Sequence record: PP180001
Origin: Escherichia phage mEp010
Strand: one strand, 5' to 3'
DNA length: 53,791 bases
The notes below the pieces were generated by a model that was not told where the DNA came from, did no database searches, and was given only the letters and a program-made list of their open reading frames with translations. Position numbers and translations under genes: made by a program. Shown piece after piece: positions 2,846 to 44,191 of this stretch; the first letter of the stretch is position 1; every line of letters starts with the position of its first letter.

Positions 2846-3039
2846 AATACACCGTTGCTATTTTTCCATTGTGCCCGTGCGTACATAATCGCCTGCAAAG
2901 AAATTAGCCGCGAGCTTGTCATGAAAGCGCCTTTTAAATATTTCATGTCAACCGTGACAGGTTTATCAGGATCATCGCCGCGCATGTATTCCGCAATTGT
3001 GCTTAAGTCTTCCACGGTCAAATCTAATTCCCTATTCAT
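2842..3039 (-). CDS. Hypothetical protein (65 aa)
   Basis: Track ORF, 4-nt overlap with ninB start; operon packing. Confidence 0.5.
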   Translation of the reverse strand: MNRELDLTVEDLSTIAEYMRGDDPDKPVTVDMKYLKGAFMTSSRLISLQAIMYARAQWKNSNGVL

Positions 3040-3048
3040 GGTCGCCCC

Positions 3049-3255
3049 TTACACAATACGCATTGTGTTTCGTAATTCACCGCGCAACGCCTGCAAAGCG
3101 TAACGAATAGGCACAAAAGCCCGGTTAAATTTTACGTGCCTGTACTTGCGCATTAGTGGAGGCGTATAAACCATCGCGCCGCAAGAATTGCATGGAAATT
3201 TAAAGTGTGATTCGTCAATGAATGTTTCAACTGAATAAAAAATTACCCGTCTCAT
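3049..3255 (-). CDS. Hypothetical protein (68 aa, Cys-containing)
   Basis: Track ORF; start overlaps stop of upstream gene. Confidence 0.5.
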   Translation of the reverse strand: MRRVIFYSVETFIDESHFKFPCNSCGAMVYTPPLMRKYRHVKFNRAFVPIRYALQALRGELRNTMRIV

Positions 3256-3845
3256 AATTCCAACCCCGTTTCACCGTTAAGTTTTTCGATCTCAAATACT
3301 GGCTTATCAGGCAGAAGGCCGTTGTTTTTCCGGTATTCGCTCAGGCGACTATCAAAGTCAAACGCCAGATCATTAGCGTGACCGAATCGCCCAGGTTTAA
3401 ACAGCGAGTAAAAGTTAACCCCGTGCCTATTTGGATCAACGCAAAGCGTTTCATCAATCACCATTAAACGCAGAGTACGAGAAAGATAATTCCACGGTAT
3501 TCCCGTTTCAGCGCTAATGTCGCGCATACGCTTTTTAACGCTGTAGCCACCAAATAACGACGCGACACGCTCACGACGTTCAGCATATAACTGTTTAATA
3601 CGATAACCCAGCAGACGGCGGCGGCGTCCAAAACATGTATACACGCGCTCGACGATACCGTTTTTTATTAAGTGTTTAATTGTCTCAGGCAGTAACCCGT
3701 CTTTGTCATATCCAGCCAATAACCCCGTTTTATTGCGTAACTGGTGCATTGTTGCGATGCCATCAAGTTCAAGGATATTGATAACTTTTGTTTCAAGTTC
3801 AGCGCTCATTGCTTTTAGCCTCATTAAAAACGCGATAACAGCCAC
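3252..3845 (-). CDS. Hypothetical protein (197 aa) downstream of helicase
   Basis: Track ORF in leftward replication operon; no motif recognised. Confidence 0.55.
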   Translation of the reverse strand: MAVIAFLMRLKAMSAELETKVINILELDGIATMHQLRNKTGLLAGYDKDGLLPETIKHLIKNGIVERVYTCFGRRRRLLGYRIKQLYAERRERVASLFGGYSVKKRMRDISAETGIPWNYLSRTLRLMVIDETLCVDPNRHGVNFYSLFKPGRFGHANDLAFDFDSRLSEYRKNNGLLPDKPVFEIEKLNGETGLEL

Positions 3846-38388: not shown

Positions 38389-38805
38389 TTATCTGAACCT
38401 TACTATTTCAATTCTGCCGTTGCCCAAGTCAATGATGGCATGATTTTTTATACCCGCGCCGCCTTCGTTAAATATTCTTTCAGCAAATGCGGCTTTATCA
38501 GCGTTACACTCATTGGCTATTCTGTTTCTTATTTCATCGTTGCCTTCGAATACGACGCCTACAGCAGCCTCCTTCACAAGTCCCCAGTTAAACCATCTTG
38601 CGTAAACTGGTTTACCTTCGAAATGATCGTCAATTGCTTTATAAAAAACCTTGATAGCTGCGGGTTCCTTCTTGAAGATTTTGTGGTATTCGGCAACATT
38701 ATTAGCTACATCATCGCAGTTTATATTCATCACATCGTTTGCGTTGGCGTTGAATGCTAAACCTACCATTACCGCCATCACTGCCGCTTTAATTAGCCGT
38801 TTCAT
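38389..38805 (-). CDS. Secreted/periplasmic protein with signal peptide (moron)
   Basis: 138 aa; N-terminal MKRLIKAAVMAVMVGLAFNANA; opposite strand inside tail module. Confidence 0.6.
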   Translation of the reverse strand: MKRLIKAAVMAVMVGLAFNANANDVMNINCDDVANNVAEYHKIFKKEPAAIKVFYKAIDDHFEGKPVYARWFNWGLVKEAAVGVVFEGNDEIRNRIANECNADKAAFAERIFNEGGAGIKNHAIIDLGNGRIEIVRFR

Positions 38806-39060: not shown

Positions 39061-41409
39061 ATGTCCACCAGTTTAGGTACAATTTATTACGAAGTTGATG
39101 CAAAAACTGGTCAACTTCTGGTCGCTCAGCGACAGGCTGACCAGGCTTTTGACAGTATCGAGCGTGGCGCAAAACGCGCTGACCGCCAGGTGAACACGCT
39201 TAAGACTTCAATCAAAGCACTATCCAGGGTTATTCATCTGTTACTTGCTGCGGAGGCTGTACGCCAGTTTATTGACATGGCGGAGCAAGCAAAAATGCTT
39301 CGCGTAAAAATCAAATTGCTTACAGGTGAAGCGGAGGCAACGGAACGCGTTTTCAATAGACTGAAAGAAATATCAAAAGAAACAGGCCAAAGCCTCAAGG
39401 ATACTGGCGACCTGTGGCAAGGGCTTGCTATATCGCTAAAAAACACATCCGCTACGGAAGGCCAGGTCCTCAACCTGGTTAGCACGCTGCAAAAACTCGG
39501 CAACCTGGGCGGCGTATCTGCGGAACAACTATCAAACTCCATGCGCCAGTTCCGCCAGGCTATTGATGCTGGCGTATTGCAGGCGGAAGAATTTAACTCA
39601 ATACGTGACAACACCCCAACAATCATACAGGAAATGGCCCGACAGATGGGGTTGTCAATGGGTCAGTTCCGCGCTGAAATGCTGGACGGCAAGATCACGG
39701 CTGAAAGGATGCTCAACGCGATCCAGGCCGCCACGCAGGAAACAAACGAGAAGTTTGCGCAGTTGCCGCGCACATCCGGCATGGCCTTCAACGAGCTTAA
39801 AGTTGAGGTGATGGGACTTGTCGAACAGCTAGACGATCTTTTCGGCATATCAGATGGCGTTGTGTCGGCAATAGACTTAATCACTGGTGGCGTTGAGGGA
39901 TTAGGTAAATGCGCAAAATTCGCCGCAACATGTTTCAATACACTAAAAACTGCTGGCAGCGAATTTATCGACATGTTTGACGATGTTGCTGTTAAGGCTG
40001 GCGAGGTGGCGGAAGAAATCATCAGAATGGTAACGCCAATCAAGGCGCTAATGGATGGCTACAAATGGATGAAGGAAATCATTGACAAGCGCAAGGAAGA
40101 GCTAAATAGCAACAACGAGAAGAAATTTGGCCCCACCATTGGCAAATTCATGACGTTTAAGAATGACATCGAAAAAGCTACAGCCGCTTATGATGAGTTC
40201 ATGCAGAAACAGGGTGAGGCTGACGACGGCAAGATCACCGGATTCGATCAGCCAGTTGGTAAACCGAAAAAAGGGAAAAAGGGCAAAAAGGACAAGAAAT
40301 CCGAAGCTGATCGGCTTGGTGATGAAGGTATAAACGTCTCTGACCAGTACAACAAAGACGCCGCCGCTATGCGTAAAGCACTGGAGAACGGCAAGGCCAT
40401 TGACGCTGCGTTTGCTCAGGGCAAAATAACCCTCCTTGAGTACAAGGCCGCGCAAAAGGGGATAGGCAAGGAACTGAAGGACGAATTAGCACAAATCCCG
40501 GTGGAAGAATTGCAAGACAAATGGGCGCACATAGTAAGCCCGATGGATCAGCTTAAGGGCGAAATTGACCCAATAAAACAGGTTCAGAATGAATGGGCAG
40601 TAAGGAAACAAATGCTATTGGACCTGGGCGCTACAGAGGCGCAACAAAGACAGGCACAGTTGGAATACGAACAACAGATCAGAGATCTGAAATGGGAACA
40701 ATGGCAGGCGCAAAGCGACACAAACGGCCTGATTGGAGCGTGCGTCAGCGGCCTGAAAGGTGGCATGGGTAATGCCCTTACCGGACTGCTAAACGGTACT
40801 CAATCGCTAAGTGAGGTTTTCGCCAACCTGGGAAGCAGCATACTCAATACTGTTGGCAATAAACTATCAGAAATTGCCGCAAACTGGATAGCAGATCAGT
40901 TGATGATGGAAACACAAAGCAAGGCCACGCAAGCAAGTACCACGGCTGGCGCGGTAGCGGCACAAGGCCAGATTGCAGCGGCGGCGGCCCCGGCGGCTGC
41001 GGCAACGGCTGCGTCAACTGGTGGTAGCTGGGCTGCGGCTGGTGCTGCGGCGCTTTCTGCGATCATGTCGCTGGCAACGTCAATTTTTGGCGGCGGGCGT
41101 TATAATGGTGGTTCTGTTAATGGTGGTAGTCTGTATCGCGTAGGTGAACACGGGATTCCTGAGCTATTCCAGACGAGCAACGGGCGTCAGTATATGATTC
41201 CTGGCGAGAATGGTAGGGTGATTCCTGGCCGTGATCTCTTCAATGGTGGCGGCATCAATATGCCTGTTAACATCAACGTCCATACCACAAACGGGTTTAG
41301 CGACGAAGACGGTCGCAGACTTGAACAGACTATGGAGCGCGTAGCAATGAAGATGATGGCAAGGGAATCACAACGACCTGGAGGAATGTTGCAACCGCGC
41401 CGCAAATAA
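39061..41409 (+). CDS. Tail tape measure protein
   Basis: 782 aa, coiled-coil rich, Gly/Ala-rich C-terminal region; position. Confidence 0.85.
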   Translation: MSTSLGTIYYEVDAKTGQLLVAQRQADQAFDSIERGAKRADRQVNTLKTSIKALSRVIHLLLAAEAVRQFIDMAEQAKMLRVKIKLLTGEAEATERVFNRLKEISKETGQSLKDTGDLWQGLAISLKNTSATEGQVLNLVSTLQKLGNLGGVSAEQLSNSMRQFRQAIDAGVLQAEEFNSIRDNTPTIIQEMARQMGLSMGQFRAEMLDGKITAERMLNAIQAATQETNEKFAQLPRTSGMAFNELKVEVMGLVEQLDDLFGISDGVVSAIDLITGGVEGLGKCAKFAATCFNTLKTAGSEFIDMFDDVAVKAGEVAEEIIRMVTPIKALMDGYKWMKEIIDKRKEELNSNNEKKFGPTIGKFMTFKNDIEKATAAYDEFMQKQGEADDGKITGFDQPVGKPKKGKKGKKDKKSEADRLGDEGINVSDQYNKDAAAMRKALENGKAIDAAFAQGKITLLEYKAAQKGIGKELKDELAQIPVEELQDKWAHIVSPMDQLKGEIDPIKQVQNEWAVRKQMLLDLGATEAQQRQAQLEYEQQIRDLKWEQWQAQSDTNGLIGACVSGLKGGMGNALTGLLNGTQSLSEVFANLGSSILNTVGNKLSEIAANWIADQLMMETQSKATQASTTAGAVAAQGQIAAAAAPAAAATAASTGGSWAAAGAAALSAIMSLATSIFGGGRYNGGSVNGGSLYRVGEHGIPELFQTSNGRQYMIPGENGRVIPGRDLFNGGGINMPVNINVHTTNGFSDEDGRRLEQTMERVAMKMMARESQRPGGMLQPRRK

Positions 41410-41441
41410 ACAAAAACCCCGGTACAATGCCGGGGTTATCT
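41410..41441. terminator. Bidirectional rho-independent terminator
   Basis: CCCCGG-TACAAT-GCCGGGG hairpin with A-run upstream and T-rich downstream; separates tape measure gene from minus-strand cassette. Confidence 0.7.
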
Positions 41442-41624
41442 TTATTCAATTTCATCATTATTAAATTCGCCGCTTGCATAAAGCTGTAATGCTCTTATCA
41501 GTTCGTCAGCTTGCTTTTTGTTTATTACAATCATCTCGCAGTCGCTAACGATCCATAATCTTCCATCATCTTCAACACTAAGATCAATCCTTCTGCATTC
41601 TTCAGTCTCGTGAATAATCATCAT
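41442..41624 (-). CDS. Hypothetical protein (60 aa, acidic C-terminus)
   Basis: Track ORF; last gene of minus-strand cassette. Confidence 0.5.
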   Translation of the reverse strand: MMIIHETEECRRIDLSVEDDGRLWIVSDCEMIVINKKQADELIRALQLYASGEFNNDEIE

Positions 41625-41662
41625 AAACCTTCATTATGTTATTAATTTACTGAATAAATTTA

Positions 41663-41830
41663 CTAAAATCTTGTATATCCTCTCTCAATTTTCCCTCCGT
41701 GTACACTTCTGGCAAATACCGCGTCAGTATACCTGAAAAATGGACATGTATATGTATCCCCTTTGCTATCCATATATTTTAGCACCCATGCCATGCGTTT
41801 TACGTTGCTTTTGTTTGCCTGATTTTTCAT
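41663..41830 (-). CDS. Hypothetical protein (55 aa)
   Basis: GGAGG SD 10 nt upstream; Met12 of track ORF 41663-41863. Confidence 0.45.
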   Translation of the reverse strand: MKNQANKSNVKRMAWVLKYMDSKGDTYTCPFFRYTDAVFARSVHGGKIERGYTRF

Positions 41831-41849
41831 TTTTATTTTCCTCCGTAAA

Positions 41850-41942
41850 TCACAACCTGCCATTTCTTGCTATGTAGCTGCGAGCAAACATTACCTGCCA
41901 GATGTTCCAGATCTCCCGCCAGGTGAATTTATCGTCATCCAT
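41850..41942 (-). CDS. Possible 30-aa protein (MDDDKFTWREIWNIWQVMFARSYIARNGRL)
   Basis: GAGGTGA SD; 8 nt after upstream stop. Confidence 0.25.
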   Translation of the reverse strand: MDDDKFTWREIWNIWQVMFARSYIARNGRL

Positions 41943-41950
41943 ATTTCACC

Positions 41951-42205
41951 TCATTTATGCGCCCCTTTTACGCCACAGTGGCGGTTGTATTCCAGATGGT
42001 CAATAATTAACCACATCTTTAAATCTTCGCTGAATAACCGCCAATCGGGGTTGATGTCAAATTTATAGCCGTAGCCATCGCGTAATTTTTTGGGGTTGGC
42101 CTCTTTTTTCAGGAAAGAATTTAATAAAGCCTTGCCTTTTTTGATGATCCGTTCCTGTGCGTTTTTCTGTGCTTTCAGGTTTTTGCCAATCGCCACCAAT
42201 TTCAT
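41951..42205 (-). CDS. Hypothetical basic protein (84 aa)
   Basis: Track ORF, 20 nt after upstream gene. Confidence 0.5.
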   Translation of the reverse strand: MKLVAIGKNLKAQKNAQERIIKKGKALLNSFLKKEANPKKLRDGYGYKFDINPDWRLFSEDLKMWLIIDHLEYNRHCGVKGAHK

Positions 42206-42225
42206 AACTCACCCCACGCAATCAA

Positions 42226-42381
42226 TCAGTTGACCACTTTCAGGAAGAAATCACGGTATTCATCTTCTTTTGCATTCATCATGAATTGACCGTATTTGAA
42301 TGCATCATCAAAACCCTTCACAATCGCAACTTCCACCTGTTCGAATGCTTTGTTTAGCATTACCACTACATAGCGTTCCAT
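42226..42381 (-). CDS. Hypothetical protein (51 aa)
   Basis: Met64 of track ORF 42226-42570 with AGGGGG SD; first gene of cassette. Confidence 0.4.
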   Translation of the reverse strand: MERYVVVMLNKAFEQVEVAIVKGFDDAFKYGQFMMNAKEDEYRDFFLKVVN

Positions 42382-42553
42382 ATTGGCCCCCTTTGTTGGT
42401 ACTGCTTTCTCTTCTTGCTTTCTGTATACATCTTGTTGCGTCCTGTGTGAAGCCATTTCGTAAACTGGGTATAATTCTTGTGACGAAGTTATCATTTTTC
42501 GCGTAGAAGCGCGTAAAGATGTATGCAATATGTAACTTATGATGGGGGAAATC

Positions 42554-42907
42554 ATGCCTGAAGTTTTCAAATGGACGCCGCAAAGAAGCTACAGCGTAAA
42601 CACTGAACCAAACGTGTCCGTCGTTAAACTTGGTGACGGTTATGAGCAGCGCCAGGCGAAAGGGATCAACACGTTACTTGATACTTATACCCTGGTTTTC
42701 AAAGGAAGTAGTGCAGGATGCGGTGCAGCCGGAAATGTCGCGCTACAGGTTGACGCATTTTTAAGGGCGCGCGGCGCGGTCGAGGCGTTTTACTGGACTC
42801 CATCGACCGACGGGGTGCAAAGGCTTTTCGTTTGTCGTAGCTGGAGTATGACCAAAGACGGGCCTGTTTGCACGCTAAACGCAACGTTTGAACAAGTTGT
42901 TGGCTAA
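42554..42907 (+). CDS. M: Minor tail protein M
   Basis: Resembles lambda gpM (F.W.P.....SV...V.FGDGY.QR); Met6 of track ORF. Confidence 0.75.
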   Translation: MPEVFKWTPQRSYSVNTEPNVSVVKLGDGYEQRQAKGINTLLDTYTLVFKGSSAGCGAAGNVALQVDAFLRARGAVEAFYWTPSTDGVQRLFVCRSWSMTKDGPVCTLNATFEQVVG

Positions 42908-42921
42908 TGGTGGGGGTTGTT

Positions 42922-43107
42922 ATGTACGGTTTTTGTGTGGTTGATAAGACTGAATCTTTTACATTATTTGCAGACTATGAGATCAACGACCTTGCTGTAA
43001 GAGCTGACAATGGCGATACATGGTATTTGCATGATATGGGTGACGGGTATGTCGGGTGCAGATCCAGGGAGGGTAAGGAGGTTTTATTTTTGGTTGATGG
43101 CGTATAA
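42922..43107 (+). CDS. Hypothetical protein (61 aa) between M and L
   Basis: Met6 of track ORF 42907-43107; GGGGG SD. Confidence 0.45.
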   Translation: MYGFCVVDKTESFTLFADYEINDLAVRADNGDTWYLHDMGDGYVGCRSREGKEVLFLVDGV

Positions 43108-43137
43108 AAACAACCCCGCGCGAAGCGGGGTTTTTCT
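43108..43137. terminator. Bidirectional rho-independent terminator (same hairpin as at 51247-51263, inverted)
   Basis: CCCCGC-GCGAA-GCGGGG hairpin plus TTTTT. Confidence 0.7.
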
Positions 43138-43139
43138 TG

Positions 43140-43277
43140 TCAGTAGTGGATATACAGCAAGCTCATTGGGTGAGCGTGCGCCATGTTGTTTGCTATTGCC
43201 GCCCAGTCCCAATCAGCAGCGTGAATGCCAAATACTATCAGTCCCATTATTATTAGCGCCAAAACTTCTATTTTCAT
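43140..43277 (-). CDS. Possible 45-aa hydrophobic membrane peptide
   Basis: MKIEVLALIIMGLIVFGIHAADWDWAAIANNMAHAHPMSLLYIHY; 10 nt after upstream stop. Confidence 0.3.
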   Translation of the reverse strand: MKIEVLALIIMGLIVFGIHAADWDWAAIANNMAHAHPMSLLYIHY

Positions 43278-43287
43278 AATCTGTCAC

Positions 43288-43536
43288 CTATAAGTTATCA
43301 CGCAGATAATTAACGCCTTTATCAGTGACGAATGAATGATTGACCTGGTTTTCGTCCGTCATGATTATGAATAGCTTTTCCTGTAGGTATTTCGCTTTCG
43401 GGTACAGCGTTAAACAGACCTGGTACAGTATCCCGCGCTCAATCAGCAAATCAATAAATTCGTGCTCATGATAACCGACGAGGCGGGCGGCCTGTTTTAA
43501 CGTGTACACATAATCGCCGTGATTGCGCCGCCCCAT
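43288..43536 (-). CDS. Hypothetical protein (82 aa)
   Basis: Track ORF. Confidence 0.5.
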   Translation of the reverse strand: MGRRNHGDYVYTLKQAARLVGYHEHEFIDLLIERGILYQVCLTLYPKAKYLQEKLFIIMTDENQVNHSFVTDKGVNYLRDNL

Positions 43537-43544
43537 GTTGCCGC

Positions 43545-43895
43545 CTATTTATCGAATGCAGACAAATTGTCGATACAGAAGTCTTTAGCAGCCTTTTCGT
43601 ATTCGCGTTTTGCTTCTGGATTGTCAGCCGGGAAACCTTTTGCGTGTATTTCACCAGGGCAAGATTGATCCATAGAGTCTGCAAAGTTAACATTGGCGTT
43701 GAAGTTAATATCTTTCGGGTTCATCTCTTCCACCTTATCCGGCACTTGGACCGGAGTAATATCAAAATCACGAGCGTTAGACCAACAGCGAAGTAATTCA
43801 CGACCTTCATCACGAGCTGCGACATATGTATCAAACAGCCCCATGCGCTCCCATTCACATTTATCAGTCCATATTTCTAAACTGTATTTTTGCAT
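43545..43895 (-). CDS. Hypothetical protein (116 aa)
   Basis: Track ORF; start codon embedded in recurrent motif GTTTAACAAAATGC. Confidence 0.55.
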   Translation of the reverse strand: MQKYSLEIWTDKCEWERMGLFDTYVAARDEGRELLRCWSNARDFDITPVQVPDKVEEMNPKDINFNANVNFADSMDQSCPGEIHAKGFPADNPEAKREYEKAAKDFCIDNLSAFDK

Positions 43896-43907
43896 TTTGT
43901 TAAACTC

Positions 43908-44063
43908 TCATTTGACAGGTTCGATCCTGTACCCTAAAACTCGTTCGTCTTCAGCGAGTAAAAGCGCGTCAGTAAGTGCCTCGCCTTCATCTTTATACAG
44001 GGCCACAGTCATTTTTCTGCCATCCGCCAGGAATACCGTCAACCTCCACACCTTATCATCCAT
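43908..44063 (-). CDS. Hypothetical protein (51 aa; may start at 44081)
   Basis: GGAGGTG SD before Met26 of track ORF 43908-44138; alternative Met20 lies in recurrent motif. Confidence 0.4.
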   Translation of the reverse strand: MDDKVWRLTVFLADGRKMTVALYKDEGEALTDALLLAEDERVLGYRIEPVK

Positions 44064-44191
44064 ATCACACCTCCGCGCCATTTTGTTAACCCTGCTTCCT
44101 TTTGAGTACAATATACATATTGTAAAAAACGCGATCAACCGTTTTGGTATGATTTGGCGTGACAGCGATCACAAAATGACAAGGTGAAAAA

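Follow-up and report, generated by a model that had tools for sequence, protein, structure and literature searches.

A reversed accessory gene island with a predicted RelE/ParE-fold protein between the tape measure gene and gene M of Escherichia phage mEp010

In Escherichia phage mEp010 (sequence record PP180001; the 53,791 nucleotides analyzed are referred to as the window), a group of small genes on the opposite strand lies inside the tail gene cluster, between the tape measure protein (TMP) gene and gene M. According to the list of open reading frames (ORFs) and the sequence, the TMP gene (39061-41409) and M (from 42554) are on the plus strand, and the 1144 bp between them (41410-42553) hold five minus-strand ORFs of 51, 84, 30, 55 and 59-60 amino acids (aa), named here A51, T84, p30, p55 and p60 (Table 1). 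This agrees with the original prediction, made from the sequence alone, of a gap of about 1.1 kb with five minus-strand genes, each with its own Shine-Dalgarno (SD) sequence, as an SD-like motif was read before every ORF (from A51 to p60: AAGGGGG, GGGGTGAG, GAGGTG, GGAGGA and GAAGG). The M start at 42554 was preferred over an in-frame upstream ATG at 42539, which is less likely because the SD sequence GGGGGA precedes 42554. An alternative 66-aa reading of p55 from 41863 is possible, but without an SD sequence, and the p30 start codon lies 8 nt past the T84 stop codon. The GC content is 36-42% within the island vs. 49-58% in the TMP and M/L flanks, no RNA family of Rfam was matched anywhere in the window, and the GenBank record of Escherichia phage mEp044 (PP180004.1) has the same five coding sequences, each labelled hypothetical protein.

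Table 1. Features between the tape measure gene and gene M (positions in the window; minus-strand genes are given from start to end)
Feature	Position	Strand	Description
A51	42381-42226	-	51 aa, acidic; first gene of the island
T84	42205-41951	-	84 aa; PF24732 (ParE_like); anchor gene of the island
p30	41942-41850	-	30 aa, Trp-rich micro-protein
p55	41830-41663	-	55 aa; variable cargo
p60	41624-41442	-	60 aa, or 59 aa from the second ATG; acidic; variable cargo
Hairpin terminator	41415-41437	both	common to the tape measure gene (+) and the reversed island (-)
A51-M intergenic region	42382-42553	both	conserved; candidate promoters facing both ways

A 1.4-kb piece of mEp010 was used to compare the region with other genomes. 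It is 99.9% identical to mEp044, shows 82-93% identity with mEp554, mEp515, mEp013, mEp021 and MagusPhagus, and has matches in the prophages of 35 complete E. coli genomes. The phages belong to the Nus-dependent "mEpimmI" group (PMC11893012), and the paper on them does not contain the words moron, ParE, opposite, antisense or gp66-gp68, while "toxin" occurs only in one reference title (PMC11893012). In total, 56 related loci with TMP-M context (six phage records, E. coli prophages, and 45 IMG/VR contigs) were gathered by T84 homology, and selection was estimated with the pairwise Nei-Gojobori method. The resulting ratios of non-synonymous to synonymous change (dN/dS) were 0.065 for A51, 0.081 for T84, 0.038 for p30, 0.138 for p55 and 0.177 for p60, with 0.077 for gene M. 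Judged by these substitution patterns, all five ORFs are genuine protein-coding genes under purifying selection, p30 being regarded as a real gene because it is strongly constrained despite its 30 codons (pS 0.70, pN 0.07, dN/dS about 0.04).

The far end of the island is closed by a hairpin with a GC-rich stem of 8-10 bp and a folding energy of -16.9 kcal/mol on the plus strand (z -4.7) and -15.3 kcal/mol on the minus strand (z -2.2), where its copy is followed by UUUUUGUUUAUUU, a good U-tract. It corresponds to terminator T13 of the GenBank annotation, and with a strong fold on both strands it confirms the bidirectional terminator originally placed at 41417-41435, within the slightly different limits given in Table 1. 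At the other end, the A51-M intergenic region (approximately 170 bp) has a mean pairwise identity of 87% (47 unique sequences), while the flanking genes differ at 46-49% of their synonymous sites; it is thus far more conserved than neutral sites. It contains a candidate minus-strand promoter (TTCACA at 42451-42446, a 17-nt spacer, and TATACA at 42428-42423) and, back-to-back with it, a candidate plus-strand promoter facing M, with a perfect TATAAT at 42470-42475, about 75 nt upstream of M. Among the related loci the TATAAT is invariant and the TTCACA and TATACA hexamers are invariant or nearly so; a consensus promoter scan called neither candidate. A conserved tandem of CGCGTAGAAG and CGCGTAAAGA (42500-42519, plus strand) is present in the putative M leader, and together with the TATAAT it may supply the M-L-K-I-J segment with an internal promoter and operator.

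The gene content of the island differs between loci. A51 is found in 53 of the 56, p30 in about 35, p55 in 29 and the p60 family in 24, and the M-TMP spacing ranges from 685 to 2334 bp. The shortest distance of 685 bp is that of the loci (at least 11) with A51 and T84 alone, while about 20 loci have the A51-T84 pair but not p30. What lies 3' of T84 may be p30, p55, p60, a 49-aa protein, a 95-aa membrane protein, or HNH or T5orf172 homing-endonuclease-like genes. Because A51 and T84 are nearly constant while the content downstream of T84 varies, the island reads as a fixed promoter-proximal core (A51, T84) followed by recombining, exchangeable distal cargo. Among the exchangeable genes, an HNH_3 homing-endonuclease-like gene is located directly downstream of T84 in mEp515 (L004, 2229-2735) and in locus L056, and the same position in mEp013 (L005, 183-1493) is taken by a 436-aa protein with treble-clef zinc fingers and a T5orf172 domain; the mEp021 counterpart of this protein is broken into two ORFs (L006, 143-616 and 1001-1477). 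None of the five products was recognized by PADLOC as a known defence-system protein, and on the related cargo PADLOC returned homing-endonuclease models only, for the HNH gene. A megablast search of M alone against E. coli genomes gave no cassette-less relative, all 12 matched genomes having the cassette.

Phages with other contents of the same slot were found elsewhere. In Erwinia phage Midgardsormr38 one small same-strand ORF lies between TMP and M, and M and L are contiguous, while Salmonella phage ES18, the M protein of which is 66% identical, has the unrelated minus-strand genes gp22 and gp25, described as "possible moron", in the TMP-M and M-L slots. The comparison with related phages that the original prediction had proposed therefore bears out its claim of an insertion relative to a contiguous H-M layout, as the slot is near-contiguous and lacks the island in Midgardsormr38 and is filled with another gene in ES18. 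Like a moron, the island is inserted between genes that are adjacent in relatives, has its own terminator, and is distinct in base composition. The terminator-gene-promoter layout of a moron, which had also been predicted, stands as regards the terminator, the opposite strand, the low GC content and the "possible moron" of ES18 in the slot, but its promoter is only a conserved candidate that the scan did not call.

Because the ES18 and Midgardsormr38 slots differ, the moron reading is supported and a role in tail assembly is refuted. That the five genes encode tail-assembly accessory or other late-expressed morphogenesis proteins would fit their location inside the tail cluster and the conservation of A51 and T84 across the phage group, but we consider it highly improbable: they lie on the strand opposite to all tail genes with terminators in between, relatives can do without three of the five, and the slot is empty or otherwise filled in ES18 and Midgardsormr38 despite homologous M, L, K, I, and J. 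Moreover, T84 has a toxin or nuclease fold, and homologues occur in non-structural small-gene arrays of other phages. Tail or structural genes are expected to be co-oriented, co-transcribed and conserved with the tail genes, which does not describe the island, and this explanation was rejected on account of orientation, terminators, and variable content.

The original prediction had recognized no family among the five products, and this does not hold for T84, which matches Pfam PF24732 (ParE_like, "ParE-like toxin domain") with 44.5 bits vs. a gathering threshold of 24.4 (E = 1.6e-11, profile positions 2-67 of 67) and has homologues with precomputed PF24732 assignments and the PGAP name "ParE family toxin-like protein". 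The AlphaFold2 model predicts a RelE/ParE-type (BECR) fold, with the N-terminal helix or helices on a three- to four-stranded antiparallel sheet and the C-terminal helix that characterize this superfamily. Its top predicted viral structure matches are "ParE-like toxin domain" proteins of the jumbo phages fHe-Yen9-04 and RaK2 (TM 0.74-0.81), and tblastn identified homologues with 28-35% identity in Rak2-like jumbo phages, siphovirus Sortsne, and Serratia phage OS31. Pfam places the Rak2-like/K64-1, Sortsne and OS31 homologues in PF24732, and they bear labels such as "YafQ-like ribonuclease toxin" (K64-1 gp471) or "HigB-like" (OS31). T84 is a member of an uncharacterised, largely phage-borne RelE/ParE (BECR-fold) branch, PF24732, which is not among the 13 Pfam BECR families of a 2025 survey of the superfamily (PMC11980606). 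T84 had no NCBIfam, PADLOC or PDB sequence match; phmmer (word-indexed, as well as full against 1.8 billion representatives) and profile searches found it only in the phage group plus one lineage (P0041/P0106, 47-53% identical), and these deep searches gave no distant annotated relatives. The proposed check of structure and family was thus fruitful for T84, but not for A51 (no Pfam or PDB match) or p60 (no Pfam or NCBIfam match).

When seven family members were compared, of which three share only 26-32% identity with T84, residues P38, K40, R56, H70, and N74 proved invariant; R56 is in the same strand motif as the "yRl" arginine of RelE, while H70 and N74 are at the start of the C-terminal helix. 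ParE proteins lack the ribonuclease (RNase) catalytic residues of BECR RNases (PMC11980606), and because the invariant Lys, Arg, His, and Asn are present in T84, its activity is probably of the RNase type, i.e., that of a RelE/YafQ-like mRNA nuclease, and not gyrase poisoning. The Pfam name ParE_like and the PGAP name would point to a ParE-type DNA gyrase poison, an improbable alternative given that T84 gave no match to PF05016 or PF15781 at E ≤ 1, that invariant K40, R56, H70, and N74 are unexpected in such a toxin (PMC11980606), and that other annotators label homologues YafQ-like or HigB-like. T84 departs on both counts from ParE gyrase inhibitors, which are recognized by PF05016 membership and by the lack of RNase catalytic residues. 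Frameshifted or truncated alleles of 46-61 aa exist in E. coli prophages and metagenomes (P0033-P0040 and P0107-P0109, e.g., E. coli Ecol_244), and T84 therefore decays in some lineages.

Whether T84 and A51 are toxin and antitoxin was judged mainly from natural variants. A51 is precisely deleted in two distinct genomes, that of E. coli UMNK88 (L009; L027 is identical) and that of a metagenomic phage (L025), where an intact T84 begins at the start codon of A51, behind the same leader and ribosome-binding site. Between these two distinct genomes T84 shows 7 synonymous and 2 non-synonymous codon differences, and by this count it is still under purifying selection in the A51-less lineage. Furthermore, A51 distances correlate poorly with those of T84 (Spearman 0.11, vs. 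0.53 with M), and one and the same A51 sequence is found next to T84 of all three clades, whose identity to the window allele is approximately 62-100%. The genes next to PF24732 members in four further contexts (Sortsne, jumbo phage K64-1, OS31, and the viral contig L059) are unrelated to A51, p30, p55, p60, and to each other; they showed no antitoxin domain, and no Pfam domain except one ParB-like protein (an annotation label only). PF24732 homologues also occur in virulent and jumbo phages without a conserved partner. That natural variants lack A51 and that homologues occur in virulent phages suggests that the PF24732 branch acts without a dedicated antitoxin.

The obvious rival is a type II toxin-antitoxin (TA) module with a new antitoxin family, in which A51 binds T84, neutralises it, and possibly also controls its own promoter. 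Such a module would serve to stabilise the prophage or to abort infection by superinfecting phages, with p30, p55, and p60 as unrelated cargo. We regard this rival as possible but somewhat unlikely. The antitoxin-first order on one strand with a 20-nt gap, a small acidic A51 next to a basic T84 with a toxin fold, and the occurrence of A51 and T84 as the minimal cassette all speak for it, as do the frameshifted or truncated T84 alleles, which are common for toxins, and the documentation of RelE/ParE-family TA modules as phage defences (PMC11980606). Set against this are the A51-less lineage that keeps an intact, constrained T84 behind the same leader, the missing co-variation with identical A51 next to T84 alleles only about 62% identical, and the partnerless homologues in virulent phages, for which addiction would be pointless. 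In addition, A51 matches phrog_29810 but no Pfam, NCBIfam or PADLOC model, and a PDB profile search was empty, leaving it with no antitoxin domain or solved-structure relative in these searches; all of its 60 hits were ≥ 76% identical, with no relative outside the mEpimmI-type phage group. A51 does not behave as the required, co-evolving adjacent antitoxin of a type II system and is a candidate modulator or antitoxin. An AlphaFold2 model of an A51-(G4S)6-T84 fusion with a paired alignment (pLDDT 48.8, pTM 0.37) was uninformative, as the T84 part was itself degraded. The earlier guess of a TA module was therefore right in so far as a toxin-fold protein follows a small acidic gene, while the comparative evidence opposes an obligate cognate pair.

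Of the remaining products, p60 matches phrog_13627 (unknown function, E = 2e-7) but no Pfam, NCBIfam or PADLOC model, and its family includes alleles only 43-50% identical; like p60, p55 matches only PHROGs of unknown function. A 140-kb viral contig (L059, IMGVR_UViG_3300045988_159287) carries adjacent p30-like and p55-like genes (343-707) in the same order as the window, with 59% and 51% identity and a conserved p30 motif DDKFTWREIxNIW, as well as a T84 homologue (50% identical) 2.6 kb downstream (3001-3267), all of them part of a long run of small genes on one strand. Because these p30 and p55 homologues are adjacent in the same order, p30/p55-type small genes are seen to circulate among unrelated phages. 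Locus L012 was noted together with L059 in this connection. A "VHGGK-IER" motif appears both in p55 and in the gene that follows the T84 homologue of L059, but the match extends over 10 residues and was considered chance.

Taken together, we favour, with confidence about evenly divided, the reading of the region as a reverse-oriented accessory "moron" island at a TMP-M recombination hotspot in the tail operon of mEpimmI-group temperate coliphages, with a solo phage-borne RelE/YafQ-like effector as its anchor. The island would be transcribed from its own sigma-70-type promoter, in the lysogen as well, and would be shut down by convergent, antiterminated late transcription, by analogy with what was proposed for the reversed genes of phi80. 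T84 would act as a RelE/YafQ-like endoribonuclease, probably ribosome-associated, and would serve host modulation or phage-phage competition largely on its own, as a "solo" effector, not as the toxin of an obligate TA pair; A51 and p30 may modulate T84, which tolerates the loss of either.

Several observations weigh against this interpretation. The candidate minus-strand promoter matches 9 of the 12 consensus positions, lacks the -7 T, and was passed over by the scan. As the loci were gathered by T84 homology, T84 is present in all of them by design and the co-occurrence counts are biased. The frequency of A51 (53/56), its antitoxin-first position, and the combination of an acidic A51 with a basic T84 fit a TA pair, and none of the 56 loci lacks both A51 and p30, so that redundant neutralisers are possible. 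Profile alignment of T84 with E. coli RelE, YoeB, and YafQ was insignificant (0-4 bits; a lead only), and the choice of an RNase over a gyrase poison is drawn from conserved residues.

A bolder version, which we hold to be rather unlikely, sees PF24732 as a family of phage-specific antitoxin-free RelE-fold endoribonucleases (cf. T4 RegB) used by virulent and jumbo phages in infection, of which mEpimmI prophages redeploy one on a reversed, lysogen-expressed island for exclusion or host modulation, with A51 and p30 as new dispensable modulators.

Further reversed genes lie in the same tail module, where four minus-strand islands were counted in mEp044 and the window, including 38389-38805, 43140-44138 and one after gene J (PP180004.1, 51439-51811). 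Each starts directly after a plus-strand intrinsic terminator (T12, T13, T15, and T17 in GenBank), so that transcription of the late operon of this Nus-dependent phage has to pass at least four terminators. The second island, between M and L (43140-44138, minus strand), contains ORFs of 45, 82, 116, and 61-76 aa, and a KilAC/ANT antirepressor domain (PF03374, E = 1.3e-6) was detected in the product of 82 aa. It is bounded by a bidirectional hairpin (43112-43132) with the same stem ends, AACCCCG...CGGGGTT, as the T13 hairpin. At 38389-38805 (minus strand), between the tail-chaperone-like and tape measure genes, a 138-aa ORF with a signal-peptide-like N-terminus (MKRLIKAAVMAVMVGLAFNANA) had no Pfam match. 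A 66-aa ORF right after M (42907-43107, plus strand), which overlaps the M stop codon and is conserved in relatives, had no Pfam match either; in ES18 the equivalent position is occupied by a DUF1327 gene.

Temperate phages are known to carry lysogen-expressed genes on opposite-strand accessory islands in their tail operons, and the architecture is in this respect unsurprising. What is useful is a well-delimited, easily tested island with a two-gene core and exchangeable cargo at a defined hotspot, in a phage group reported to be prevalent in the human gut, as well as an anchor family that has no experimental characterisation and was left out of the 2025 survey. If T84 is indeed antitoxin-free, the view of how phages use toxin folds would be widened; should A51 turn out to be an antitoxin instead, a new family of antitoxins would be established.

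Compared with known systems, T84 shares its BECR fold and size with the toxins of RelBE, YefM-YoeB, DinJ-YafQ, ParDE, and PaaA2-ParE2, and a small acidic gene likewise precedes it in the unit. Unlike in type II RelE/ParE modules, the upstream A51 lacks an antitoxin domain, is naturally dispensable and shows no co-evolution, and the T84 family is outside the 13 surveyed BECR families (PMC11980606). The Tai/Ati "noncontiguous operon" of phi80 resembles the island in being a gene set reversed inside the late operon, and its reversed gene was proposed to be lysogen-expressed and silenced by convergent late transcription (PMC11364771); however, the proteins are unrelated, the reversed gene of phi80 is upstream of the packaging module, and the island has no identified counter-defence partner. 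The tail-operon morons (ES18 gp22/gp25, HK97 gp15) are, like the island, insertions between adjacent tail genes with their own terminator, lower GC content, and opposite orientation. An opposite-strand, lysogen-expressed gene is also known in lambda (bor). ES18 uses the same TMP-M and M-L slots for unrelated cargo, its gp22 being a 132-aa protein with a hydrophobic N-terminus, and the island differs from ES18-type morons in its five genes, fixed two-gene core and exchangeable distal genes, with lysogen expression here only proposed. Phage T4 RegB is a phage endoribonuclease with a RelE/YoeB-like fold and no antitoxin. T84 resembles it as a small phage protein with a RelE-like fold and, as proposed here, no cognate antitoxin, and PF24732 homologues are also found among the small genes of virulent phages.

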